DNA of 24,000 nt from Deltaproteobacteria bacterium (GTDB taxonomy: Bacteria > Desulfobacterota > Desulfobulbia > Desulfobulbales > Desulfobulbaceae): contig JAJRTB010000219.1 in assembly GCA_024278495.1 (NCBI GenBank), forward strand, positions 3,286-27,285, read 5' to 3'. The notes under the pieces are model-generated. The model made no database searches. It was not told the origin of the DNA and was given only the letters and a program-made list of their open reading frames with translations. Below are positions 3,396-20,137 of the stretch, one piece after another; the first letter of the stretch is position 1; the number at the start of each line of letters is the position of its first letter. The position numbers and the translations under genes were made by a program.

Positions 3396-4106
3396 ATGGC
3401 CACGTGGATCAGACCCTGCTTTTCCTGGAACCAGGTGGACACGGTCCTCCTGGACATGGACGGCACCCTGCTGGACAAGCATTTTGACGACTATTTCTGG
3501 GAACAGTATGTCCCGGAGCACTACAGCCTCAAACACGACATCCCGGTGGAGGAAGCAAAGAGGACGCTCCTTGAACGCTACGGCAGGGTGGAAAACACCC
3601 TCAACTGGACCGACCTGGATTACTGGACCGACCAGCTGGGCCTGGACATACCTGAACTGAAGATGCGGATCAGCCATCTTATCGATGTCCACCCGTATGT
3701 GCCGAATTTTCTGCGCTTCTGCCGAAACCTGAAAAAAGAGGTCGTTCTGGTGACCAATGCCCATCCCAAAACCCTGGCCATCAAACTGGAAAAAACCGGT
3801 ATTGAGGGAATGTTTGACCGGATAATCTGCGCCGATGAAATCGGTCTGGCCAAGGAAGAAGCGGAATTCTGGAACCGGATCGAGCGGAAAATCGGCTTTG
3901 ACAAGACCAGAACCATGCTGGCCGATGATACCGAAAAGGTCCTGCGCACTGCCGAGGGATACGGCATGGGGTACCTGGTCTATGTGGCACGGCCCAGCAG
4001 CAGGCGACCAGCCAGTTTTTCTGACCAATTCCCCTCCATTGAATACTTCTCAGAACTGTTACCCGACCTCAACGCCTCACCGAACATCCCACGCCGACAA
4101 CCATGA
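3396..4106 (+). CDS. HAD-superfamily hydrolase, YrfG-like (GMP/IMP nucleotidase family)
   Basis: The HAD motif I is present (DTVLLDMDGTLLD). From memory the sequence is collinear with E. coli YrfG (WxxVDTVLLDMDGTLLD..FDxYFW...LNWxxLDYWxxQLGLDI...LVTNAHP). An AAGGAAG ribosome-binding site lies just upstream of ATG 3396, which sits 4 nt after the mfd stop. Confidence 0.8.
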   Translation: MATWIRPCFSWNQVDTVLLDMDGTLLDKHFDDYFWEQYVPEHYSLKHDIPVEEAKRTLLERYGRVENTLNWTDLDYWTDQLGLDIPELKMRISHLIDVHPYVPNFLRFCRNLKKEVVLVTNAHPKTLAIKLEKTGIEGMFDRIICADEIGLAKEEAEFWNRIERKIGFDKTRTMLADDTEKVLRTAEGYGMGYLVYVARPSSRRPASFSDQFPSIEYFSELLPDLNASPNIPRRQP

Positions 4107-10175: not shown

Positions 10176-10757
10176 ATGGGAGTCACCTATCATCCCGGAG
10201 AATTCAATTCAATGCCTGGACAAGCAAGCGGTACCGGTCAAGTCCCCCGTGATCTGACCGTTGTTGGTGATTTTGTAAAATACTTTGTCATCCTCTATAT
10301 TCCCTTTGTCATCATTGGGATAATTATAGGTTTGATCTTCAAGTCATTTTTCACAGCCGCTCTTGTCAACCCCATTATTTACGCGGGCGGCATCGCCGTC
10401 ATCATCATTGTCATCAAGCACGACGTCAACGACATCCTCGCTCTTGCAGGCCGGGCAAAGGATCAGCAGCTTGCCCTGCATATCAGATACGGTCAAGCCC
10501 TTCAAAAAACAAGTATCCTGATGGCTGCCGGTAAGTATGACGAGGCCCTGAGGTCCGTCAATGCCGTGTTGAAAAAAGAACCGGAATATGCCAATGCCCT
10601 GAATCTCAAGGGCCAGATCCAGCTGGAAGGCTTCGGCAGGTATGCGGCGGCCCGCTCCTGTTTTGAAAAGGTCATGGATCTGGCCGAACCGGAATCGGAA
10701 GATTACCGGCTGGCCGAATCTCTGGCAATGGCGGCATACAAGGCAGAAGAAAGATGA
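10176..10757 (+). CDS. Small membrane protein with a C-terminal TPR-like domain
   Basis: Two hydrophobic helices are present (FVILYIPFVIIGIIIGLIF and VNPIIYAGGIAVIIIVI). A TPR-like segment follows (AAGKYDEALRSVNAVLKKEPEYANALNLKGQIQLEGFGRYAAARSCFEKVMDL). The start is uncertain: the ORF-track ATG 10176 has no ribosome-binding site, whereas ATG 10212 is preceded by GGAG. Confidence 0.6.
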   Translation: MGVTYHPGEFNSMPGQASGTGQVPRDLTVVGDFVKYFVILYIPFVIIGIIIGLIFKSFFTAALVNPIIYAGGIAVIIIVIKHDVNDILALAGRAKDQQLALHIRYGQALQKTSILMAAGKYDEALRSVNAVLKKEPEYANALNLKGQIQLEGFGRYAAARSCFEKVMDLAEPESEDYRLAESLAMAAYKAEER

Positions 10758-10815
10758 AGTACGGCCGTCGCCGGAAAAAAACACAGCGGTACCAACCACC
10801 AACAAGGTGCGCCCG

Positions 10816-11838
10816 ATGAACAAACAGCCGCAACTCCCGTCCCGGCCGGACCGCCGGCGGTTCCTGCAGATGATCGGCATTGCCGGCGGTGTCGGCGTAC
10901 TCTGGCACCTCGGTCTCGGGTCGGCCGACCCGAGAATACACACCGTCCGCCAAAGCAGGGTCCTGATGGGTACCCAGATCAACCTGATCGTCTTTGGGCC
11001 GGATCCGGTGGAATGCGATCAAGCCGTGCAGGCCACCTTTGCCCGGATGGATGAGCTGACGACCAGGCTGAGCAGACACAACCAGACAAGCGAGCTGGCC
11101 AGGCTCAACACCCGGGGCAGGCTTGTCAGGCCGGGCCGGGATCTCTGCCGGGTACTGGAGCTGGCCGAGCGGATCAGCCGTCTCTCGGAAGGCGCCTTTG
11201 ACGTCACCATCCTGCCCCTGCAGGAACTCTATGCCCGGGCCGCGGCCCGGAACACCCTGCCGGACAGGGACCGGATCGCCGCAACTCTGCGCCTGGTTGA
11301 TCATACCATGATCCACTTCGACGAGACCGCTGTAACGCTGGCGAAAAAGGGCATGGCCATCACCCTGGACGGCATTGCCAAGGGATATATTGTTGACCAG
11401 GGGATCGCCGCTCTGCGTCAACGAAACTTTCCCAATGTCTACGTTGAGGCCGGCGGCGATCTGCGGGTCGCCGGCGTCAAGCCCGGCAACAGGCCGTGGC
11501 GTATAGGCATCCGCAATCCCCGGCCGGACAAAGCCAATGAACTGGTCACGATTGCCATGGCCGACCGGGCCGTGGCCACCTCGGGTGACTACATGCAGCC
11601 CTTCAGCGCTGATCTGCGCAACCACCATATCATCGATCCCCGCACCGGTCATTCACCGCCCGAGCTGGCCAGCGCCACGGTCACGGCACCCACCGTCGCC
11701 CTGGCCGACGGTCTGGCGACCGCTGCCATGGTGCTGGGACCGCGCCGGGCCATTGCCATGCTGGAGGCCCTGCCCGACTGTGAAGGGTTCTTTATCGGCA
11801 AGGACCTGCGCCGCTACCAAACCCGTGGCTTCAGCTGA
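10816..11838 (+). CDS. apbE: FAD:protein FMN transferase (ApbE/Ftp family) with a Tat signal
   Basis: ApbE family motifs are present (AFDVTI, LDGIAKGY, VEAGGDL, ATSGDY, HIIDPRTG, ALADGLATA). I place the start at ATG 10816 (MNKQPQLPSRPDRRRFLQMIG), which gives a twin-arginine signal. The longer ORF-track start at 10642 overlaps the TPR gene in another frame. The gene lies directly upstream of nqrA. Confidence 0.9.
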   Translation: MNKQPQLPSRPDRRRFLQMIGIAGGVGVLWHLGLGSADPRIHTVRQSRVLMGTQINLIVFGPDPVECDQAVQATFARMDELTTRLSRHNQTSELARLNTRGRLVRPGRDLCRVLELAERISRLSEGAFDVTILPLQELYARAAARNTLPDRDRIAATLRLVDHTMIHFDETAVTLAKKGMAITLDGIAKGYIVDQGIAALRQRNFPNVYVEAGGDLRVAGVKPGNRPWRIGIRNPRPDKANELVTIAMADRAVATSGDYMQPFSADLRNHHIIDPRTGHSPPELASATVTAPTVALADGLATAAMVLGPRRAIAMLEALPDCEGFFIGKDLRRYQTRGFS

Positions 11839-11839
11839 T

Positions 11840-13195
11840 ATGCAGTGTCTTCGCCTTTCCAGGGGACTGGATATCCCCCTTGCCGGGGAACCCGACCAGG
11901 TCGTTAAGCCCGGCCCGGCCATCCGGCACGTCGCTCTGATCGGCGACGACTATCCTGGCCTGAAACCCACCCTGCTGGTCCGTGTGGGTGAAACGGTCCG
12001 GCTGGGCCAGCCCCTGTTCACGGACAAAAAGAACCCCACCGTTTTTTTTACGGCCCCGGCCGGCGGCACCGTCAAGGAGATCAACCGGGGCGCGAAAAGG
12101 AAATTTGAATCCCTGGTCATTGCCCTGGAGGAGCATGAACCCGTTACCTTCCCCGTCCCGGCCGACCGGAACGTTGCCGGGCTGCCGCCGGAGGAGATCA
12201 AAAAAAACCTGCAGGAATCGGGCCTCTGGTGCGGATTCCGCACCAGGCCGTTCGGCCGGATCCCGGCGGCGGCCGACCTGCCGGCATCGCTCTTTATCAC
12301 GGCCGTCGACACCCGGCCCCTGGCTGGTGATCCCCAAATCATCCTTGCCCGCCGGCGGGACGATTTCAACCTGGGCCTGCGGGTCCTGCGCCGTTTCCCG
12401 GCCGTTCCGCTCTATTTCTGCACCTCGGACGACTTTGACCCGGAAGGTTTTGAACTCGATGGCGTGCACCACGTCGGTTTCCGCGGCCCGCATCCGGCCG
12501 GACTGCCGTCCACCCACATCCATTTCCTTGACCCGGTCCATGCCGGCAAGCAGGTCTGGCACATCTGCTGCCAGGATGTTATCGGAATCGGCCATCTGTT
12601 CCGGACCGGTCAACTGCCGACCGAAAAAACCATTGCCCTGGCCGGACCGGGCATCAGCAACCCCGCCCTGGTCCGGACCCGGATCGGCGCCGACCTGACC
12701 GAACTCTGCGCTGAACGGCTGACCGGGGCCCCTTCCCGGCGAATCCTGTCCGGCTCCGTGCTGGACGGGCGACGGGCCGCCGGACCGCTCGCCTACCTGG
12801 GCCGCTATCACAACCAGGTCAGCGTGATCCCGGAAGGCACCAGCCGTGGTTTCCTGAACTGGCTGCGGCCCGGCCGGGACCGCTTTTCCGTCACCGGTCT
12901 TTTCCTCTCCTCCCTGCTGCCGCAAACCGGGAAATTCGTTATGTCCAGCGCAACCTGGGGCGGGCAGCGGGCAATTTTCCCGCTCGGCACCTATGAGAAG
13001 GTGATGCCCCTTGATATCATTGCCACCCCCCTGCTGAAAAGCCTGGCGGTACAGGACATTGAAAAGGCGGAACTGCTGGGCTGCCTGGAGCTGATAGAAG
13101 AAGATCTTGCTCTGTGCTCCTTTGTCTGCCCCGGCAAAAACAACTACGGCCCCATGCTGCGCGAGATCCTGACAACGATTGAACGAGAAGGCTGA
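11840..13195 (+). CDS. nqrA: Na+-translocating NADH:quinone oxidoreductase subunit A
   Basis: The start [18 protein letters not shown] is the NqrA-type N-terminus (xxKxGLDxPxxG). ATG 11840 lies 1 nt after the apbE stop. At 452 aa the length fits NqrA. The ORF-track extension back to 11537 overlaps apbE. Confidence 0.9.
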
Positions 13196-13209
13196 AGCCG
13201 ACGGACCCC

Positions 13210-14418
13210 ATGCGATTTCTCCACGGATTGTTCAAGAAAACAGAACCTCTCTTCACCGGAGACGGCCTGCTGGCCCGCTGGTACCCCCTGTTCGAGGCAG
13301 CGGATTCTTTTCTCTTTGACAGCGGCCGGACAACCGGGACGGCCCCGCATGTCCGCGACGCGGTCAACATGAAGCGCATCATGATCACGGTGGTCATTGC
13401 CCTGCTCCCCTGCATTGGCATGGCTGTCTGGAATACCGGCTACCAGGCCAACCTGGCCCTCCGGGCCCTGGGCGCCTCAGTGCCGGCCGGCTGGCGGGGC
13501 GCAATCATGGCGCCCATAGGCTGCGATCCGGCCAGCCTGTGGGCCAACCTGGTCCACGGCAGTCTCTATTTTCTGCCCATTTACCTGGTGACCATGCTGG
13601 TCGGAGGATTCTGGGAATGTCTGTTCAGCATTGGGCGCCGGCATGAAATTTCTGAAGCATTTCTGGTGACCGGCCTCCTCTTTCCCCTCACCCTGCCGCC
13701 CGGCGTGCCGCTCTGGCAGGTCGCGGTGGGCATCAGTTTCGGAGTCGTCTTTGCCAAGGAGGTGTTCGGCGGAGTCGGCCGCAACTTCATGAATCCGGCC
13801 CTGGTCGCCCGGGCCTTTCTCTACTTTGCCTACCCGGCCCGGATGAGCGGCGACCTGGTGTGGACGGCCGTGGACGGTTTTACCCGGGCCACGCCCCTGG
13901 CCGTCATATCCGCCGCCCGACCGGACAAAGTCATGGACGCGCTTTCCATCACCTGGAGCCAGGCCTTTCTGGGTACCATTCCCGGTTCCATGGGCGAGAC
14001 CTCTGCCCTGGCCTGCCTCCTGGGCGCGGCGATTCTGCTCGGTACCAGCATTGCTTCCTGGCGGATCATGGCCTCCATGCTGTTTGGCGGTTTTGGCGCC
14101 GCCCTGCTCTTTTTCCTGAGCACCAGTCCCACCAACCCCATGTTCGCCGTGCCGCCGCACTGGCACCTGGTCCTCGGCGGTTTTGCCTTCGGCCTGGTCT
14201 TCATGGCAACCGATCCGGTCACGGCGGCCGCCACCCGGGTCGGCCAGTGGCTGTACGGCCTGTTCATCGGCGCCCTGGCCATCATCATCAGGGTGCTCAA
14301 CCCCGCCTTCCCCGAGGGGGTGATGCTGGCGATCCTGCTGGGCAACGTGGTGGCGCCGTTTATCGACTACTTTGTCATCCAGGCAAACATCAAACGAAGG
14401 ATGGTGCGTCATGGCTGA
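13210..14418 (+). CDS. nqrB: Na+-NQR subunit B
   Basis: A polytopic membrane protein, collinear from memory with Vibrio NqrB ([43 protein letters not shown]). The FMN-attachment motif reads DGFTRAT rather than DGxSGAT. Confidence 0.9.
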
Positions 14419-15193
14419 ACATTCCGCCGCCAAACCGTTTTATTCCGTCCTGGTGCTGGCCTTTGTCTGTTCGGCCCTGGTCTCCGGCGCGGCAGTGGGA
14501 CTGCGCCCCTATCAGGAGGCCAACCGCCGGGCCGACCAGAAGAAAAACATCCTGCGGGCCGCGGGACTCTATCGGCCCGACACACCGGTCGAAGCTCTTT
14601 TCGCCGATATCGAGACCAGAATTATCGACCTGCAAACCGGCGCCTGGCTGACCCGGGGACCTGACCCGGAGACCTATGATCAGCTCCAGGCCGCCCTCAG
14701 CAACGACCAGGGCCGTCCGCTTGCCAAACAAGACGATATTGCCGGTCTGCGACGCCTGGAAAAATACGCCCTGGTCTACCTGGTGCGCCGGGGCAACAAA
14801 ACCGGGCAGATCATCCTGCCGGTCCGGGGCAAGGGCTTATGGTCAACCATGTACGGCTACGTTGCCCTTGACGCCGACCTGCGGACAATCCGTGGCATCA
14901 GCTTTTACGAACACGGGGAAACGCCGGGCCTGGGCGGCGAAATAGAGAACCCCAGGTGGCAGGCCGCCTGGCAGGGCAAAAAGATGTACTCGCCGACCGG
15001 CACTGTTTCGCTCCGGATCGTCAAAGGCAAGGCTGCCGCAACCGGGGATGCGGCCATGTACCAGGTGGACGGTCTGTCCGGGGCCACAATGACGGCCCGG
15101 GGCGTTGAAAACCTCATGCGTTTCTGGTTCGGCGAGCACGGCTTCAAGCCCTTCTTTGACCGTCGGCGCCAACAGGGAGGAATCGATGGCTGA
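14411..15193 (+). CDS. nqrC: Na+-NQR subunit C
   Basis: The start is at ATG 14411 in the overlap ATGGCTGA with the nqrB stop. There is an N-terminal membrane anchor. The covalent-FMN motif [14 protein letters not shown] is present, along with ETPGLG. Confidence 0.9.
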
Positions 15194-15809
15194 ATCCAAC
15201 CGCGACCTGCTGACCCGCTCCATTCTTCAGCGCAATCCCATCGCCCTGCTGGTGCTGGGCATCTGCTCGGCCCTGGCCGTCACCTCGCAGATGACCACCG
15301 CCCTGGTGATGGCGATCTGCGTTACCCTGGTAACGGCCCTGTCCGGCTTTACCATCAGCGTGGTCCGTTTTCAGATTCCCAACAGCGTCCGGGTCGGCAT
15401 CCAGATAACGGTCATCGCCACCCTGGTCATTCTGATCGACCAGTTCCTGCGCGCCTTCTATTTTGACCTGTCCAGGCAACTCTCCATCTATGTCGGCCTG
15501 ATCATAACCAACTGCATCATCATGGGACGGGCCGAAGGGTTTGCCATGAGCAACCCGCCCATCCCCAGTTTCATCGACGGTATAGGCAACGGTCTCGGAT
15601 ACGGCCTGGTGCTGCTGTTTGTCGCCTTTTTTCGTGAGCTGCTGGGATCCGGCACCCTGTTCGGCGTCGAGATCCTGCCGCTTGCCACCGAGGGCGGCTG
15701 GTACCCGCGCAACGGCATCTTTATCCTTCCGGTCAGCGCCTTTTTCCTGATTGCCCTGCTTATCTGGCTGCTGCGCACGCTGGATCCGGCCCAACAGGAG
15801 AAAGAATGA
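15186..15809 (+). CDS. nqrD: Na+-NQR subunit D
   Basis: The start is at ATG 15186, again in an ATGGCTGA overlap with the nqrC stop. It is collinear with NqrD/RnfE ([28 protein letters not shown]), including the two conserved Cys. Confidence 0.9.
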
Positions 15810-15861
15810 TGAACGCCCCACCCCTGACCGCAGCCCGGCAACGCAACGAACGGTGATACCT

Positions 15862-16464
15862 ATGGGTCATTATCTGGATATTATCTACCGGTCGATTTTC
15901 CTTGAAAACCTGCCCCTGAGCTTCTTTCTGGGCATGTGTACCTTCCTGGCCATTTCCAGAAAGGTCAAAACCGCCATCGGTCTCGGCCTGGCCGTTCTTG
16001 TCCTCATGATCATTACCGTGCCCATCAACAACCTGATCCTCAACATCCTGCTCAAGCCCGGAGCCCTGGCCTGGGCCGGTCAACACGAGCTGGACCTGAC
16101 CTTTCTCGGCCTGCTGACCTATATCGGCGTCATTGCCGCCGTGGTGCAGGTCCTGGAGATGTTCCTGGACCGGTTTTCGCCTGCCCTGTACAATACCCTG
16201 GGCATCTTTCTGCCCCTGCTCACGGTGAACTGCGCCATTTTTGGCGCCACCCTGTTCATGGTGGAGCGCGATTATACCTTTGCGGAAAGCGTCGCCTACG
16301 GTTTCGGAGCCGGAGCCGGTTTTTTCCTGGCCGTTGTTCTGCTGGCCGGAATCCGTGAGAAACTTGAATACGCCGATCCCCCCGCGGGCCTGCGGGGCCT
16401 GGGCTTGACGTTTATAAGCGCCGGTCTGATAGCCCTGGCCTTCATGGGGCTGGCCGGGCTGTAA
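15862..16464 (+). CDS. nqrE: Na+-NQR subunit E
   Basis: The start is at ATG 15862 ([32 protein letters not shown]). It is collinear with NqrE/RnfA, including the conserved Cys in GMCTF and VNCAIFG. Length is 200 aa. Confidence 0.9.
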
Positions 16465-16539
16465 CCGTCGGGAACAGACGGACTGCCGCGCACCGAAAAC
16501 AGAATGATGACCACCGGTCCGGACACTCGATAAACAGAT

Positions 16540-17763
16540 ATGAATGAAATCATTTTCGGCATTCTCTGCTATCTCATCCTCCAGCTGATCCTGGTCAGCC
16601 TGATCGTGCTGGCCCGGAAATCCCTGGTGCCCGGCGGTAGCATCTCCATCCTCATCAACGGGGACAGGGAACTGACCGTCTCACCCGGCGGCAAACTGCT
16701 CACCTCCCTGGCTGAACAGGAAATCTACCTCTCCTCGGCCTGCGGCGGCGGGGGCACCTGCGGCCAATGCAGGGTCGTGGTTGAGGAAGGCGGCGGAGCC
16801 ATCCTGCCCACCGAACGATCGCTGATCAATATCTTTGAGGCCCGGGCCGGGGTACGGTTGGCCTGCCAGGTCCCGGTCAGGCACGACCTCAAAATCCGGA
16901 TCCCGCCGGAGATGCTCGAAACCCGGAAATGGCAATGCCGGGTCCGCTCCAACAACAACGTGGCCACCTTTATCAAGGAACTCGTGCTGGAACTGCCGCC
17001 CGGCGAAGAGCTCAATTTCAGGCCGGGCGGATTTATCCAGATCGAGGTGCCGCCCCACGCGCTTTCCTACGCCAGTTTTGATATAGATGAGCGGTTCCTG
17101 GCCGACTGGAAAAAATTCAAGATGTTCCAGTACACATCCCACGTCCACACCCCAGTTACCAGGGCCTACTCCATGGCCAACTACCCGGGCGAGAAGGGCA
17201 TCATCAAGCTCAACGTCAGGATTGCCAGTCCGCCGCCCCGGGGACCGGCAGGCATTCCGCCCGGCAAGGTCTCTTCCTACATCTTCAATCTCAAGCCTGG
17301 CGACACAGTGACCATTTCCGGACCGTTTGGTGATTTTTTCATCGAAGACAGCAATTCGGAAATGCTCTACATCGGCGGCGGAGCCGGCATGGCGCCCCTG
17401 CGCAGTCACATCTTCGAGCTCTTCAAGGGCCGCAGGACAAAACGAAAGGTATCCTTCTGGTACGGCGCCCGCAGCCTCCGGGAAATTTTTTACGCCGGGG
17501 AGTTTGAGGAACTGGCCCGGAACCATGAAAATTTTTCATTTCATGTTGCCCTGTCCGAACCCCAACCCGAGGACGACTGGCAGGGACTGACCGGCTTCAT
17601 CCACCAGGTTCTCTTTGACAACTATCTGCGGGATCATCCGGCTCCGGAAGACATCAACTACTACATGTGCGGTCCGCCCATGATGACCAGGGCGGTGCTG
17701 GACATGCTTGATACCCTCGGGGTAGAGCCTGAAAACATCCACTTTGACGATTTCGGCGGCTGA
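16540..17763 (+). CDS. nqrF: Na+-NQR subunit F (2Fe-2S ferredoxin plus FAD/NADH domain)
   Basis: It has an N-terminal TM helix, the 2Fe-2S motif [15 protein letters not shown]...ACQ, the FAD motif RAYSMANYP, the NAD-binding motif GGGAGMAP, and the C-terminus YMCGPPMM...FDDFGG. From memory it is near full-length collinear with Vibrio NqrF. Confidence 0.95.
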
Positions 17764-17840: not shown

Positions 17841-18086
17841 ATGCGGCTTTTCATCCTTACTCTGCTTATTACCCTGGGAGTCATGCTCCTGTTCGTCTGG
17901 TTCTTCTCCTTGTGCCGCCGTAAGCTCCGGGGAACGCGGCACGGGTTGAGCGGCATGTGCCGTAAAACAGGCGGTTCCGTCTGTGCCGCCTGTCGGAAGA
18001 CGACGGCCAAGGGCGGGCCCGCTCCGGAGCGGACTGCCGGACAGGCCGAACAACATGTCACGGCGGAGGATGACGCCGAGGCCTGA
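17841..18086 (+). CDS. Small Cys-rich single-pass membrane protein, possible NqrM-like Na+-NQR maturation factor
   Basis: An AGGAG ribosome-binding site lies 5 nt upstream of ATG 17841. The N-terminal TM helix is LFILTLLITLGVMLLFVWFF. Four Cys follow (C25, C40, C48, C51, the last two as CAAC). Its position immediately after nqrF matches the general design of NqrM (DUF539), a small TM protein with 4 Cys. The Cys spacing differs from the Vibrio NqrM I remember. Confidence 0.45.
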   Translation: MRLFILTLLITLGVMLLFVWFFSLCRRKLRGTRHGLSGMCRKTGGSVCAACRKTTAKGGPAPERTAGQAEQHVTAEDDAEA

Positions 18087-18128: not shown

Positions 18129-18169
18129 TTGACAACGCCTCGCCCATCGCCTATCGTAGAGTAACGATA
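18129..18169 (+). promoter_or_regulatory. Candidate sigma70 promoter with an overlapping palindromic operator upstream of arsR
   Basis: TTGACA (18129-18134), then 17 nt, then TATCGT (18152-18157). The -10 hexamer is the left arm of the inverted repeat TATCGT-agagta-ACGATA (18152-18169). The AGAGG ribosome-binding site and ATG 18180 follow. Confidence 0.45.
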
Positions 18170-18179
18170 AAGAGGAACC

Positions 18180-18524
18180 ATGTATATTGAACCCGCGACC
18201 ACCACGGCGGCCGGTCCCGAAAAGACAACGCCCGGAGAGCTGGCAGGTCTGTGCAAGGCCCTGGGACATCCGGCCCGTATACAAATCCTGTACCACCTGC
18301 TCAGGGAGGACCGCTGTATCTGCGGCCGGATCGTCGAGGTCATGCCCCTGGCCCAGTCCACGGTCAGTCAGCACCTGAAGATACTCAAGGAAGCCGGCCT
18401 GGTCCAGGGCGAGGTCGAGGGGCCCAGCACCTGTTACTGCGTCAACCGGAAGACACTGGCCCGTCTCTGCGTCGCCATGTCCGACCTGTTGCACTGCGAG
18501 GGAAAAGATGAAAATAATCCATGA
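18180..18524 (+). CDS. arsR: ArsR/SmtB-family metalloregulatory transcription factor
   Basis: The winged-helix signature [14 protein letters not shown]...[30 protein letters not shown] is present. The CIC pair sits where the ArsR CVC metalloid-binding site lies in helix alpha3. Further Cys occur near the C-terminus (CYC, LCVAM, HCEG). Confidence 0.9.
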
Positions 18525-19701
18525 ACAGCCGGAGCCGATACCGCTCCAACCGGCCGGCCAGTTCGGCTCGCCTCTTCCCGTCATCCCGGCCGACAGCGCT
18601 GATGACGCGCCCTGCTGAGGCCCCAGGCCCGATCCCAGGTCAGGGGTCCATGATCTGCCCGGTTACACGGTCAATCCCTTTGTCGATTCCTTTGTCGAAA
18701 CACCGGCGGGAGCGGTGCCCCGGGTCCGCACGACCTTAAGCCTGCGTGACCGCCTGGGTACCGTCAGGGCCCGCATCGGTATTGCCCGAAACCGGTACAA
18801 GATACATCCCGGTCTCTACTGCGTGGGCAATCCCGCGCCCGAATCACCGGTCCTGGTGACCGCCAACTACAAACTCAGTTTCGATGCCCTGCGCAAGGAA
18901 CTCAACGGGATCGACGCCTGGATCCTGGTGGCCGACACCCGGGGCATCAATGTCTGGTGTTCTGCCGGTAAAAAAACGTTTTCCCACGATGAAGTGGCCC
19001 TGCAGGTCAAGAGAGCGCGACTGGCCGAGATCGTCTCGCACCGGGAGCTGATCCTGCCCCAGCTTGCCGCGCCCGGCATAGCTGCCCACAAACTGAAAAA
19101 GGCCTGCGGTTTCAGGGGAATCTACGGCCCTGTACAGGCCCGGGACATTCCCCGTTTCCTGCACAACGACCGGCGGATCGGGGACGGTATGCGGGCCGTT
19201 ACCTTTACCTTCCGGGAGCGACTGGTCCTGGTCCCGGTGGAGATCGCCCTGGTCTGGAAACTTTTTCTGCTCGTGGTCATCGGGATGTTCGCCCTCTCGG
19301 GAATCGGCCCGGATCTCTTCTCGTGGCAGACAGCCCTGTCCAGGGGGATGCTGGCCGCCGGGGCCACGACCCTGGCCGTCCTCGCAGGCGCCCTGCTGAC
19401 CCCCGTCCTCCTGCCCTGGATTCCGGGCCGCCAGTTCTGGTTCAAGGGAGCCCTGGCCGGAGGATTTGCCGGTCTGCTCTATACCCTGACCGCCGCCGGA
19501 GAGACATCCCTCCCCGACCGGGCGGCCCTGCTGCTCTGGATCACGGCGGCCGCATCCTACATGGCCATGAACTTCACCGGCGCCACCCCCTTTACCTCGC
19601 TGTCCGGAGTCAAATACGAGATGCAGCGGGGCCTGGCCTTTCAGTGCATCGTCTCGGCCGTCGCCCTCATTCTCTGGCTGGCAGCCCCCTTTACCGGTTA
19701 A
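18508..19701 (+). CDS. hgcA: HgcA, the mercury-methylation corrinoid protein; the frame contains an in-frame TGA at 18616-18618 (candidate Sec, or a disruption)
   Basis: - Diagnostic cap-helix motif [13 protein letters not shown] (NVWCSAGK at 18949-18972).
- Flanking HgcA-typical segments are present: [57 protein letters not shown].
- Five C-terminal TM helices.
- The conserved N-terminal ...[22 protein letters not shown] is encoded upstream of the ORF-track GTG 18715, so that start is too short.
- Frame 1 has no ATG/GTG/TTG between 18619 and 18714, and is open from ATG 18508 (GAGGG ribosome-binding site) apart from the TGA.
- The minimal uninterrupted ORF is 18715..19701. Confidence 0.8.
18619..18648 (+). 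other. Hairpin immediately 3' of the in-frame TGA in hgcA (SECIS-like candidate)
   Basis: Hand-folded structure:
- 18619-18624 GGCCCC pairs with 18643-18648 GGGGTC (6 bp, one G-U).
- An A/A mismatch at 18625/18642.
- 18626-18629 GGCC pairs with 18638-18641 GGTC (4 bp, one G-U).
- The 8-nt loop is CGATCCCA (18630-18637), with G at loop position 2. Confidence 0.4.
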
Positions 19702-19731: not shown

Positions 19732-20024
19732 ATGAAAAGCTTCAGATATATCGACAACACCGCCATCCTCAGGCTGGACAGGGAGGCCTGCATCGGCTGC
19801 GGCAACTGCGTCACGGTCTGCCCGCACCGAATCTTTACCCTGGAGGCCAAAAGGCCGCAATCATTGATTACGACGCCTGCATGGAATGCGGCGCCTGCGC
19901 CCGCAACTGTCCGGCCGAGGCCATCTTTGTCAATCCGGACGACGGCTGCGGCTGTGCCGCCTACATTATCAACAGCTGGATATCAAAGCTGCGGGGCAAA
20001 CAGGTCAACGTCTGCAGCTGCTGA
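19732..20024 (+). pseudogene. hgcB: HgcB-like 2x[4Fe-4S] ferredoxin, split by a 1-nt frame change near 19843-19850 (pseudogene, assembly error or recoding)
   Basis: Frame 1 from ATG 19732 gives MKSFRYIDNTAILRLDREACIGCGNCVTVCPHRIFTLE, the first CxxCxxCxxxCP cluster. The collinear continuation is in frame 3: GQKAAIIDYDACMECGACARNCPAEAIFVNPDDGCGCAAYIINSWISKLRGKQVNVCSC, ending at TGA 20022-20024. Adding one G to CTGGAGGCC (19840-19848) would restore a 97-aa HgcB-sized protein. Confidence 0.75.
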
Positions 20025-20084
20025 CCCATTATCCAACGTGAACGTATCCCCCAGCCGAGCACTACGATACCGAACCAGGCCGCA

Positions 20085-20111
20085 AGTCAGATCCGTCTGA
20101 TTTGTTTTTTT
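20085..20111 (+). terminator. Rho-independent terminator after hgcB
   Basis: The stem AGTCAGA (20085-20091) pairs with TCTGATT (20096-20102), giving 7 bp including one G-U. The loop is TCCG. It is followed by TG and a run of 7 T (20105-20111). Confidence 0.6.
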
Positions 20112-20137
20112 ACGAATCCGACATACGAGAGAATGGC

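Follow-up and report, generated by a model that had tools for sequence, protein, structure and literature searches.

The hgcA reading frame

The stretch of DNA analysed here (hereafter the window) comprises 24,000 nucleotides (nt) from a Deltaproteobacteria bacterium of the family Desulfobulbaceae (assembly GCA_024278495.1, contig JAJRTB010000219.1, positions 3,286 to 27,285) and carries hgcA, the gene for the mercury-methylating corrinoid protein HgcA, between an arsR-family gene and hgcB. The hgcA frame contains a single in-frame TGA which, judged by comparison with related loci, is almost certainly a genuine selenocysteine (Sec, U) codon, placing a Cys-Sec (CU) pair on what is predicted to be a flexible N-terminal tail of the protein. 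The loci compared were 48 HgcA loci from species-representative genomes, whose DNA was translated upstream of the matches, and an additional metagenomic scaffold (L049) that is 95% identical to the window in DNA. The features of the hgcA frame, in window positions, are:

18508–19701, + strand: full hgcA frame, 397 codons including the predicted Sec37, with a TAA stop at 19699–19701 (from translation and the HgcA model NF040863)
18498–18502, + strand: GAGGG Shine-Dalgarno sequence, 5 nt ahead of ATG 18508 and kept in L049
18613–18618, + strand: TGC-TGA, the predicted Cys36-Sec37 dipeptide of a PCUGP motif
18715–18717, + strand: GTG, the first in-frame start codon 3' of the TGA, a spurious start within conserved HgcA sequence

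On direct reading and translation, frame 1 runs from ATG 18508 to the TAA ending at 19701 and is interrupted only by the TGA at 18616–18618, right after the TGC at 18613–18615; its first 17 nt also belong to the 3' end of arsR. The HgcA peptide around the site reads ..DDAPC-U-GPRPDP... From 18619 to the GTG at 18715, a distance of 32 codons, the open reading frame (ORF) listing and direct reading gave no ATG, GTG or TTG in frame 1, and ATG 18650 does not lie in that frame. Every coordinate given in a first-pass annotation of the window, among them those of the TGA, the GAGGG sequence and ATG 18650, proved correct.

The read-through protein matches the NCBIfam model NF040863 (HgcA) with 425.3 bits against a cutoff of 275; the match spans residues 70–395, with the N-terminal extension outside the model. 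The cap-helix motif N(V/I)WC(A/S)(A/G)GK is present with its invariant Cys, and N148, V149, W150, C151, G154 and K155 (read-through numbering) fall in invariant columns of the protein alignment (A2). At residue 152 of the cap helix, the window and the proteins closest to it (P0001, P0002 and P0007) have Ser (NVWCSAGK), and almost all other aligned HgcA have Ala (NVWCAAGK).

Database relatives are annotated to begin at VQELPGYT.., VHEIPGYR.., LPGYS.., MDGFVETPAG.. or VGPVPR..; because these starts are scattered over about 30 conserved residues, the gene calls look truncated. HgcA of this clade with TGA at the site (Sec-type; P0002–P0081, L001–L044) are N-terminally truncated in public annotation, and many of the entries are named 'hypothetical protein' or 'CO dehydrogenase/acetyl-CoA synthase delta subunit'. 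The true hgcA of the window is 18508–19701 with Sec at codon 37, and the 328-codon ORF that starts at GTG 18715 is a truncation artefact.

Conservation of the TGA codon and its flanks

TGA was found at the identical codon in 32 Desulfobulbales-type relatives (L001–L027, L029, L038 and L044, which are 52–72% identical to the HgcA core of the window, and L049). These Sec-type relatives represent 31 species-level genomes plus L049, with HgcA identities of 52–96%, and include Desulfobulbaceae, Desulfocapsaceae, Electrothrix, Desulfopila, Desulfoprunum, Dissulfuribacterales and others. The TGA is invariant in the aligned sequences (32/32) and the Cys codon preceding it is TGC or TGT. A CU site is also present in L037 (Desulfomonilaceae, SCUPPP) and L039 (Actinobacteria, LCUGPP); with these two, which lie in further lineages, there are 34 related loci with the TGA in all, spanning several families, and such a recurrence at one codon goes far beyond chance. 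Sec-type loci share the context ..(D/T/G)(A/G)(P/V)C-U-GPK(T/P)(D/E)PR(S/A)G.H(E/D).(P/A)GY.., and upstream of the TGA the relatives keep a Met start and an LQP-containing peptide (MK..LQP..DDAPCU). The residue before CU is variable in the wider sample, where VCUGP, ACUGP, LCUGP and SCUGP occur besides PCUGP.

The protein search separated HgcA into two classes: the closest proteins, from Desulfobulbaceae and their allies, are annotated at 292–351 amino acids (aa), and distant relatives, mostly of 409–414 aa, have an N-terminal extension of the form ..PLQP..IP....DDAPCCGPKPGPPSSPYERPGY... Seven of the loci (L028 and L030–L035) and many database proteins carry CC at the site (Cys-type). PCCGP is an invariant motif of Cys-type HgcA, and the window TGA aligns without gaps to its second Cys; these homologues (DDAPCCGPKPGPPSSP..PGY) have the same spacing to PGY as the Sec-type.

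Comparison of the window with L049 over 18508–18654 gave seven substitutions, five before the TGA and two after it, none of which alters the protein encoded in frame 1; read in either of the other two frames, the same substitutions are nonsynonymous in 13 of 14 cases. A base-by-base alignment showed no insertion or deletion (indel) in 18490–18730, and L049 carries the same TGA. Among the relatives, codons +1 to +5 past the TGA, which lie outside the conserved hairpin described below, vary at the wobble position only (Gly GGC/GGT/GGA/GGG, Pro CCN, Lys AAA/AAG). These two patterns show coding selection before and after the TGA. The hgcA of the window differs from that of L049 by 30 synonymous and 16 nonsynonymous changes. 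A conserved TGA that lies between conserved coding stretches, with Cys at the aligned position of homologues, is what comparative analysis conventionally takes to mark a Sec codon.

The proposal of an N-terminal Cys-Sec tail, made in the first-pass annotation, is thus supported by the conserved TGA, by Cys in the homologues and by coding selection on both sides. The same annotation had considered a start at ATG 18650; the orthologues have no start equivalent to it, they share a conserved peptide upstream of the site, which is TGA in 34 loci and Cys in others, and the 95% identical L049 has no additional base to bring ATG 18650 into frame 1.

A conserved hairpin downstream of the UGA

Bacterial selenocysteine insertion sequence (SECIS) elements are hairpins in the coding region directly 3' of the UGA (fdhF type; Zhang & Gladyshev consensus, summarised in PMC13188914), and two folds of the window were compared with them:

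18631–18648, + strand: SECIS-like hairpin GAUCCC-AGGUCA-GGGGUC, 6 bp with a 6-nt apical loop at 18637–18642
18619–18648, + strand: longer hairpin drawn in the first-pass annotation, an alternative fold with the same 3' arm (GGGGUC), private to the window and L049

The stem of the 18631–18648 hairpin starts 12 nt past the UGA and its loop 18 nt past it, with a folding energy of −9.1 kcal/mol in the window. A hairpin stands at this fixed position in 32/32 Sec-type sequences (mean −9.8 kcal/mol over 23 nt), whereas the seven Cys-type genes have no common hairpin at that place (mean −4.3 kcal/mol). Codon choice within the element is strongly restricted: 32/32 Sec-type sequences use CCC for Pro+6 (against 30% of Pro codons in the remainder of these genes), 32/32 use AGG or CGG for Arg+7 (against 43%) and 30/31 use GGG for Gly+9 (against 19%). 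The control codons vary, Gly+1 being GGG in 1/32 and Pro+2 CCC in 9/32. The Sec-type sequences are more stable than their synonymous recodings in 32/32 cases (mean z −2.05), and two pairs of the stem differ between the window and L049 (U·G to C·G, G·C to G·U), each of them remaining paired.

The bacterial SECIS (bSECIS) model asks for a loop of 3–9 nt, a stem of 4–16 bp, a G in the first two loop positions, a distance of 16–37 nt from the UGA and a minimum free energy of ≤ −7.5 kcal/mol, and the 18631–18648 hairpin (6-bp stem, AGGUCA loop, 18 nt, −9.1 kcal/mol) lies within all of these limits. It differs from known bacterial elements in that the stem is very short, with a GC-only core of three to four invariant C-G pairs and no assignable bulged U, and SelB binding is putative. 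The minimal element of Escherichia coli fdhF also lies about 11 nt past its UGA and has a GGUC loop.

The longer fold was rejected as a SECIS element. The 18619–18648 hairpin does fold (10 bp interrupted, 8-nt loop CGAUCCCA; −20.8 kcal/mol for 18610–18670), yet no better than dinucleotide shuffles of this GC-rich region (z = +0.45; 126/200 shuffles at least as stable); L049 apart, the relatives cannot form it, as they have AAA/AAG-ACN where the window has AGG-CCC; and its loop begins 11 nt past the UGA, under the 16-nt bSECIS minimum. A hairpin past the UGA is conserved, as had been expected, but it is the one at 18631–18648 and not the one that had been drawn.

In place of the GPPSS of Cys-type tails, Sec-type tails have DPR(S/A)G, apparently because this stretch also encodes the RNA element. 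An HgcA-specific SECIS element (CCC-NGGNCN-GGG, 12 nt past the UGA) would dictate the DPR(S/A)G peptide and, if this is true, a switch from Sec to Cys would free the tail to become PPSS.

The two CU loci of further lineages, L037 (locus positions ~3900–4000; SCUPPPSQ) and L039 (~60–160; LCUGPPVTP), each have a hairpin of their own that starts about 11–15 nt past the UGA; SECIS elements may have arisen independently in them, or an old element may have diverged.

Relation to described HgcA proteins and other Cys-Sec tails

Sec-type HgcA is already published, and the gene of the window is one more example and an independent rediscovery; the first-pass annotation had known of no description of such a tail. 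Haft & Gwadz (bioRxiv 10.1101/2022.07.06.499078; J Bacteriol 2023, 205:e00259-22) describe most HgcA as PCUGP selenoproteins in which the CU motif lies in an N-terminal extension, among them those of the founder organisms ND132 and Geobacter and of 18 others; PCUGP was conserved in 20/20 proteins examined and all of those species had Sec machinery. Their definition is a single in-frame UGA in the extension, a PCUGP motif and a total of 363–400 aa, and PGAP was updated for Sec-type HgcA. The available preprint text reports no HgcA hairpin and states that SECIS searches on servers failed. HgcA (NF040863) is also listed among CU selenoproteins in a 2026 review.

The window gene fits this description, with one UGA in an N-terminal extension, within PCUGP, and 397 codons. 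It shares with the CU-type HgcA of Haft & Gwadz the PCUGP motif, its position upstream of the formerly annotated start and the arsR-hgcA-hgcB setting, and the flanks of the site are near-identical to the DDAPCUGPRPDPRAGVFEKPGY stretch of ND132, whose extension they give as MAPPDVPARDDAPCUGPRPDPRAGVFEKPGY... Nothing essential is different; the window copy adjoins a frameshifted hgcB.

Cys-type HgcA (P0082, P0085, P0093, P0105; ~372–414 aa) have a homologous tail with the same spacing between the dicysteine and PGY and the same DDAP-C-x-GP context. They differ in having Cys (TGC) for Sec, in reading GPKPGPPSSP where the Sec-type reads GPK(T/P)(D/E)PR(S/A)G and in lacking the CCC-NGGNCN-GGG hairpin. 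Most Cys-type tails (P0082, P0085, P0093, P0099 and others; columns ~24–25 of alignment A2) have a further CC motif (..CCG..) some 25 residues before PCCGP, unlike the Sec-type tails, that of the window included. This recalls the 'Cys packing' of non-Sec forms mentioned by Haft & Gwadz.

An adjacent thiol/selenol pair on a flexible end of a protein that handles Hg or organometals is likewise found in SaoL, SaoB and SaoC of the SAO system, in MerT-family selenoproteins, in the C-terminal CC of HgcB and MerA and in the GCUG motif of thioredoxin reductase, a comparison that Haft & Gwadz make as well. The HgcA pair differs in being N-terminal and on a corrinoid methyltransferase, and the likeness is one of functional analogy only, not homology.

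The arsR-hgcA-hgcB operon

Around hgcA the following features were identified:

18129–18157, + strand: sigma-70-like promoter match, TTGACA-17-TATCGT, 10/12 consensus matches (0.4 expected in shuffles)
18180–18524, + strand: arsR-family metalloregulator gene (NF033788, 73 bits, cutoff 55), with a TGA stop at 18522–18524 that lies 17 nt inside hgcA
19732–20024, + strand: hgcB ferredoxin gene, disrupted by a 1-nt deletion at ~19850 into two overlapping ORFs
20082–20112, + strand: intrinsic-terminator-like hairpin after hgcB, a 10-bp stem followed by TTTTTTT

The consensus match at 18129–18157, upstream of arsR, is likely to be the operon promoter, and arsR, hgcA and hgcB form one unit extending from this promoter-like site to the terminator after hgcB. 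The gene order arsR-hgcA-hgcB is the same in L049. Both arsR and hgcB end in UGA as an ordinary stop, which means that any recoding must be local, as the first-pass annotation had pointed out.

The hgcB gene lies directly downstream of hgcA and is frameshifted as sequenced, while it is intact in every relative where it was found. Its N-terminal part is in the frame of 19732 and its C-terminal part in the frame that ends with TGA 20022–20024; at ~19850, L049 reads GCCAGAAAGG and the window GCCA-AAAGG, a 1-nt deletion private to the window. The repaired 97-aa HgcB scores 108 bits on NF040864 (cutoff 99), and the gene as sequenced loses the second 4Fe-4S motif and the C-terminal cysteines. The deletion reflects either a mistake in sequencing or a mutation that recently inactivated the gene. 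In the latter case methylmercury may not be a product of the operon in this organism, although hgcA still shows purifying selection. A programmed frameshift was rejected, as L049 and other relatives have an intact single frame and there is no canonical slippery heptamer.

In nearly all relatives hgcB ends in C-x-C or CC followed by TGA (CSC-TGA, CGC-TGA, CNC-TGA, SCC-TGA). This terminal TGA was rejected as a C-terminal Sec codon, since nothing is conserved downstream of it and the distance to the next stop varies widely.

Elsewhere in the window, scanned ORFs match mfd-type helicase domains, HAD hydrolase, DUF6866, TPR repeats, PliI, an MFS transporter and DUF480. The + strand ORFs at ~10640–17760 are presumably an nqr operon, as judged from one translated ORF. 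Between the NqrF-like gene (16540–17763) and arsR lies an 81-aa ORF (17841–18086, + strand) with one hydrophobic N-terminal helix and several Cys, which we take to resemble the small Nqr maturation protein NqrM.

Interpretation and alternatives

From the comparative evidence above, we consider that hgcA of the window encodes a selenoprotein of the CU type known from earlier work, with a probability of roughly 0.88. Recoding by SelB and a SECIS element at codon 37 is strongly supported by comparison, the insertion of Sec itself and the binding of SelB being putative steps. Translation would begin at ATG 18508, overlapping the end of arsR. At UGA 18616 it would not terminate; the hairpin 12 nt downstream (18631–18648, loop AGGUCA) would recruit SelB with Sec-tRNA(Sec), and the tRNA borne by SelB would deliver selenocysteine to the UGA. 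The product would be a 397-residue HgcA in which the first ~50 residues form a Pro-rich, unstructured tail bearing Cys36-Sec37 (PCUGP), followed by the corrinoid-binding and membrane domains.

The flexibility attributed to this tail in the first-pass annotation is consistent with the AlphaFold model of a Cys-type homologue, P0105, taken as a proxy, in which residues 1–30, including the CC pair, have a predicted local distance difference test (pLDDT) score below 50 and no predicted secondary structure. The Cys-Sec pair could act as a soft, low-pKa bidentate ligand that captures Hg(II) or the CH3Hg+ product and, together with the cysteines at the C-terminus of HgcB, delivers it to the methyl-corrinoid site or takes it from there. 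Such a hand-off is the most likely role of the pair, by analogy with the dicysteine tails of HgcB and MerA and the CU motifs of the SAO system.

Several observations weigh against a selenoprotein. ARAGORN found no tRNA in the window and no tRNA-Sec in the 49 loci, a result that is expected and uninformative, and the scanned ORFs of the window, all outside the nqr region, resembled no protein of the Sec machinery (selA, selB, selD). We found no experimental demonstration of Se in any HgcA in the literature. Recombinant ND132 HgcAB from E. coli methylates Hg; the HgcA was presumably expressed from the annotated short start, in which case the tail would be accessory, not essential for catalysis. 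The adjacent hgcB is frameshifted as sequenced, and a genuine frameshift may mean that this organism has an inactive pathway. With regard to the RNA element, the window hairpin taken alone is not significantly better than its synonymous recodings (z −0.87). Covariation in the hairpin, assessed by RNAalifold and by pair counting in two registers, is weak; it was not significant and did not exceed the shuffle controls, because the core C-G pairs are the same throughout and the outer stem pairs in different registers in the AGG and CGG types. The invariance of synonymous codons and the synonymous-recoding control were relied on instead. Finally, Rfam has no matching family: no match reached the gathering threshold in the window, and the sole match in 18480–18760 was a meaningless long non-coding RNA (E = 3.6).

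The alternative that survives best, though we regard it as improbable, is that of two cistrons, in which a conserved 36-codon ORF (18508–18618) ends at the UGA, HgcA is made by re-initiation or from a non-canonical start, and the hairpin is a regulatory or coupling element instead of a SECIS. UGA is a normal stop elsewhere in the window, no Sec-machinery gene was seen among the scanned ORFs and part of the conservation just past the TGA is at the RNA level, all of which would suit this arrangement. It has to contend, however, with the lack of any in-frame ATG, GTG or TTG for 32 codons past the TGA, while conserved HgcA sequence (PGY..FV..F..T..G.VPRV) begins well before GTG 18715 and the candidate downstream starts in the relatives are scattered and not conserved. 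Moreover, codons +1 to +5, outside the hairpin, vary only at the wobble position of frame 1, and Cys-type homologues carry the peptide as one uninterrupted protein with Cys at the site.

Less probable still is read-through without Sec, whereby a near-cognate Trp or Cys tRNA reads the UGA, stimulated by the hairpin, so that the tail is real and the residue is not Sec. The tail is clearly translated and Sec insertion itself rests on comparison, with weak formal covariation of the hairpin, all of which leaves some room for this explanation. The pairing of the site with Cys in homologues, a classic Sec/Cys pair, argues instead for selenocysteine, as do the fit of the hairpin to bSECIS geometry with a G-containing, GGUC-type loop and the lineage itself, the Thermodesulfobacteriota, which are among the most selenoprotein-rich. 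Sec machinery is furthermore present in all 20 published CU-type HgcA species, according to Haft & Gwadz.

The two remaining explanations have next to no probability. A nonsense change from TGC/TGT to TGA within a CC pair, with hgcA left as a pseudogene, would be in keeping with the CC of Cys-type homologues and with the hgcB frameshift as a sign of operon decay, yet it is refuted in practice by the same TGA in the 34 related loci across several families, and the 7/7 synonymous substitutions of the extension and the otherwise intact hgcA, with its excess of synonymous changes against L049, also speak against it. A 1-nt deletion or sequencing error that put a true start at ATG 18650 (MDLPGYTV...) out of frame has a precedent in the apparent deletion in hgcB, but L049 has no indel there, the TGA and ..PRSG.H(D/E).PGY share one frame in every relative, and ATG 18650 is the out-of-frame reading of CAT-GAT (His-Asp; CAT-GAN in relatives) that disappears where His is CAC (L004, L005, L011, L012, L019 and L038). 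The shared TGA, L049 and the CAC codons together exclude a private nonsense mutation and a frameshifted start.

Implications

For this locus, the value of the analysis lies in the correct annotation of hgcA (18508–19701, not 18715–19701) and in the recognition of a broken hgcB, and the knowledge of the field is unchanged by it. The small points that it adds for the family are the family-wide HgcA SECIS hairpin, the occurrence of residues other than Pro before CU and the contrast between DPR(S/A)G and GPPSS. With regard to annotation, most database HgcA entries among the relatives considered here are N-terminally truncated at arbitrary starts.

Methylmercury, the product of HgcA, is a neurotoxin of global concern. 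A native Cys-Sec, Hg-binding tail would bear on how Hg(II) reaches the methyl-corrinoid and on the long-observed interplay between selenium and mercury methylation. It is possible, although we would hold it more doubtful than probable, that the native HgcA of most methylators is Sec-tailed and that the Cys-Sec pair governs the acquisition of Hg(II) or the release of methylmercury, an idea already implied by Haft & Gwadz. If this is true, the existing biochemistry, done with short recombinant HgcA that lacks the tail, would have overlooked a key step, and selenium supply would directly tune methylmercury production.

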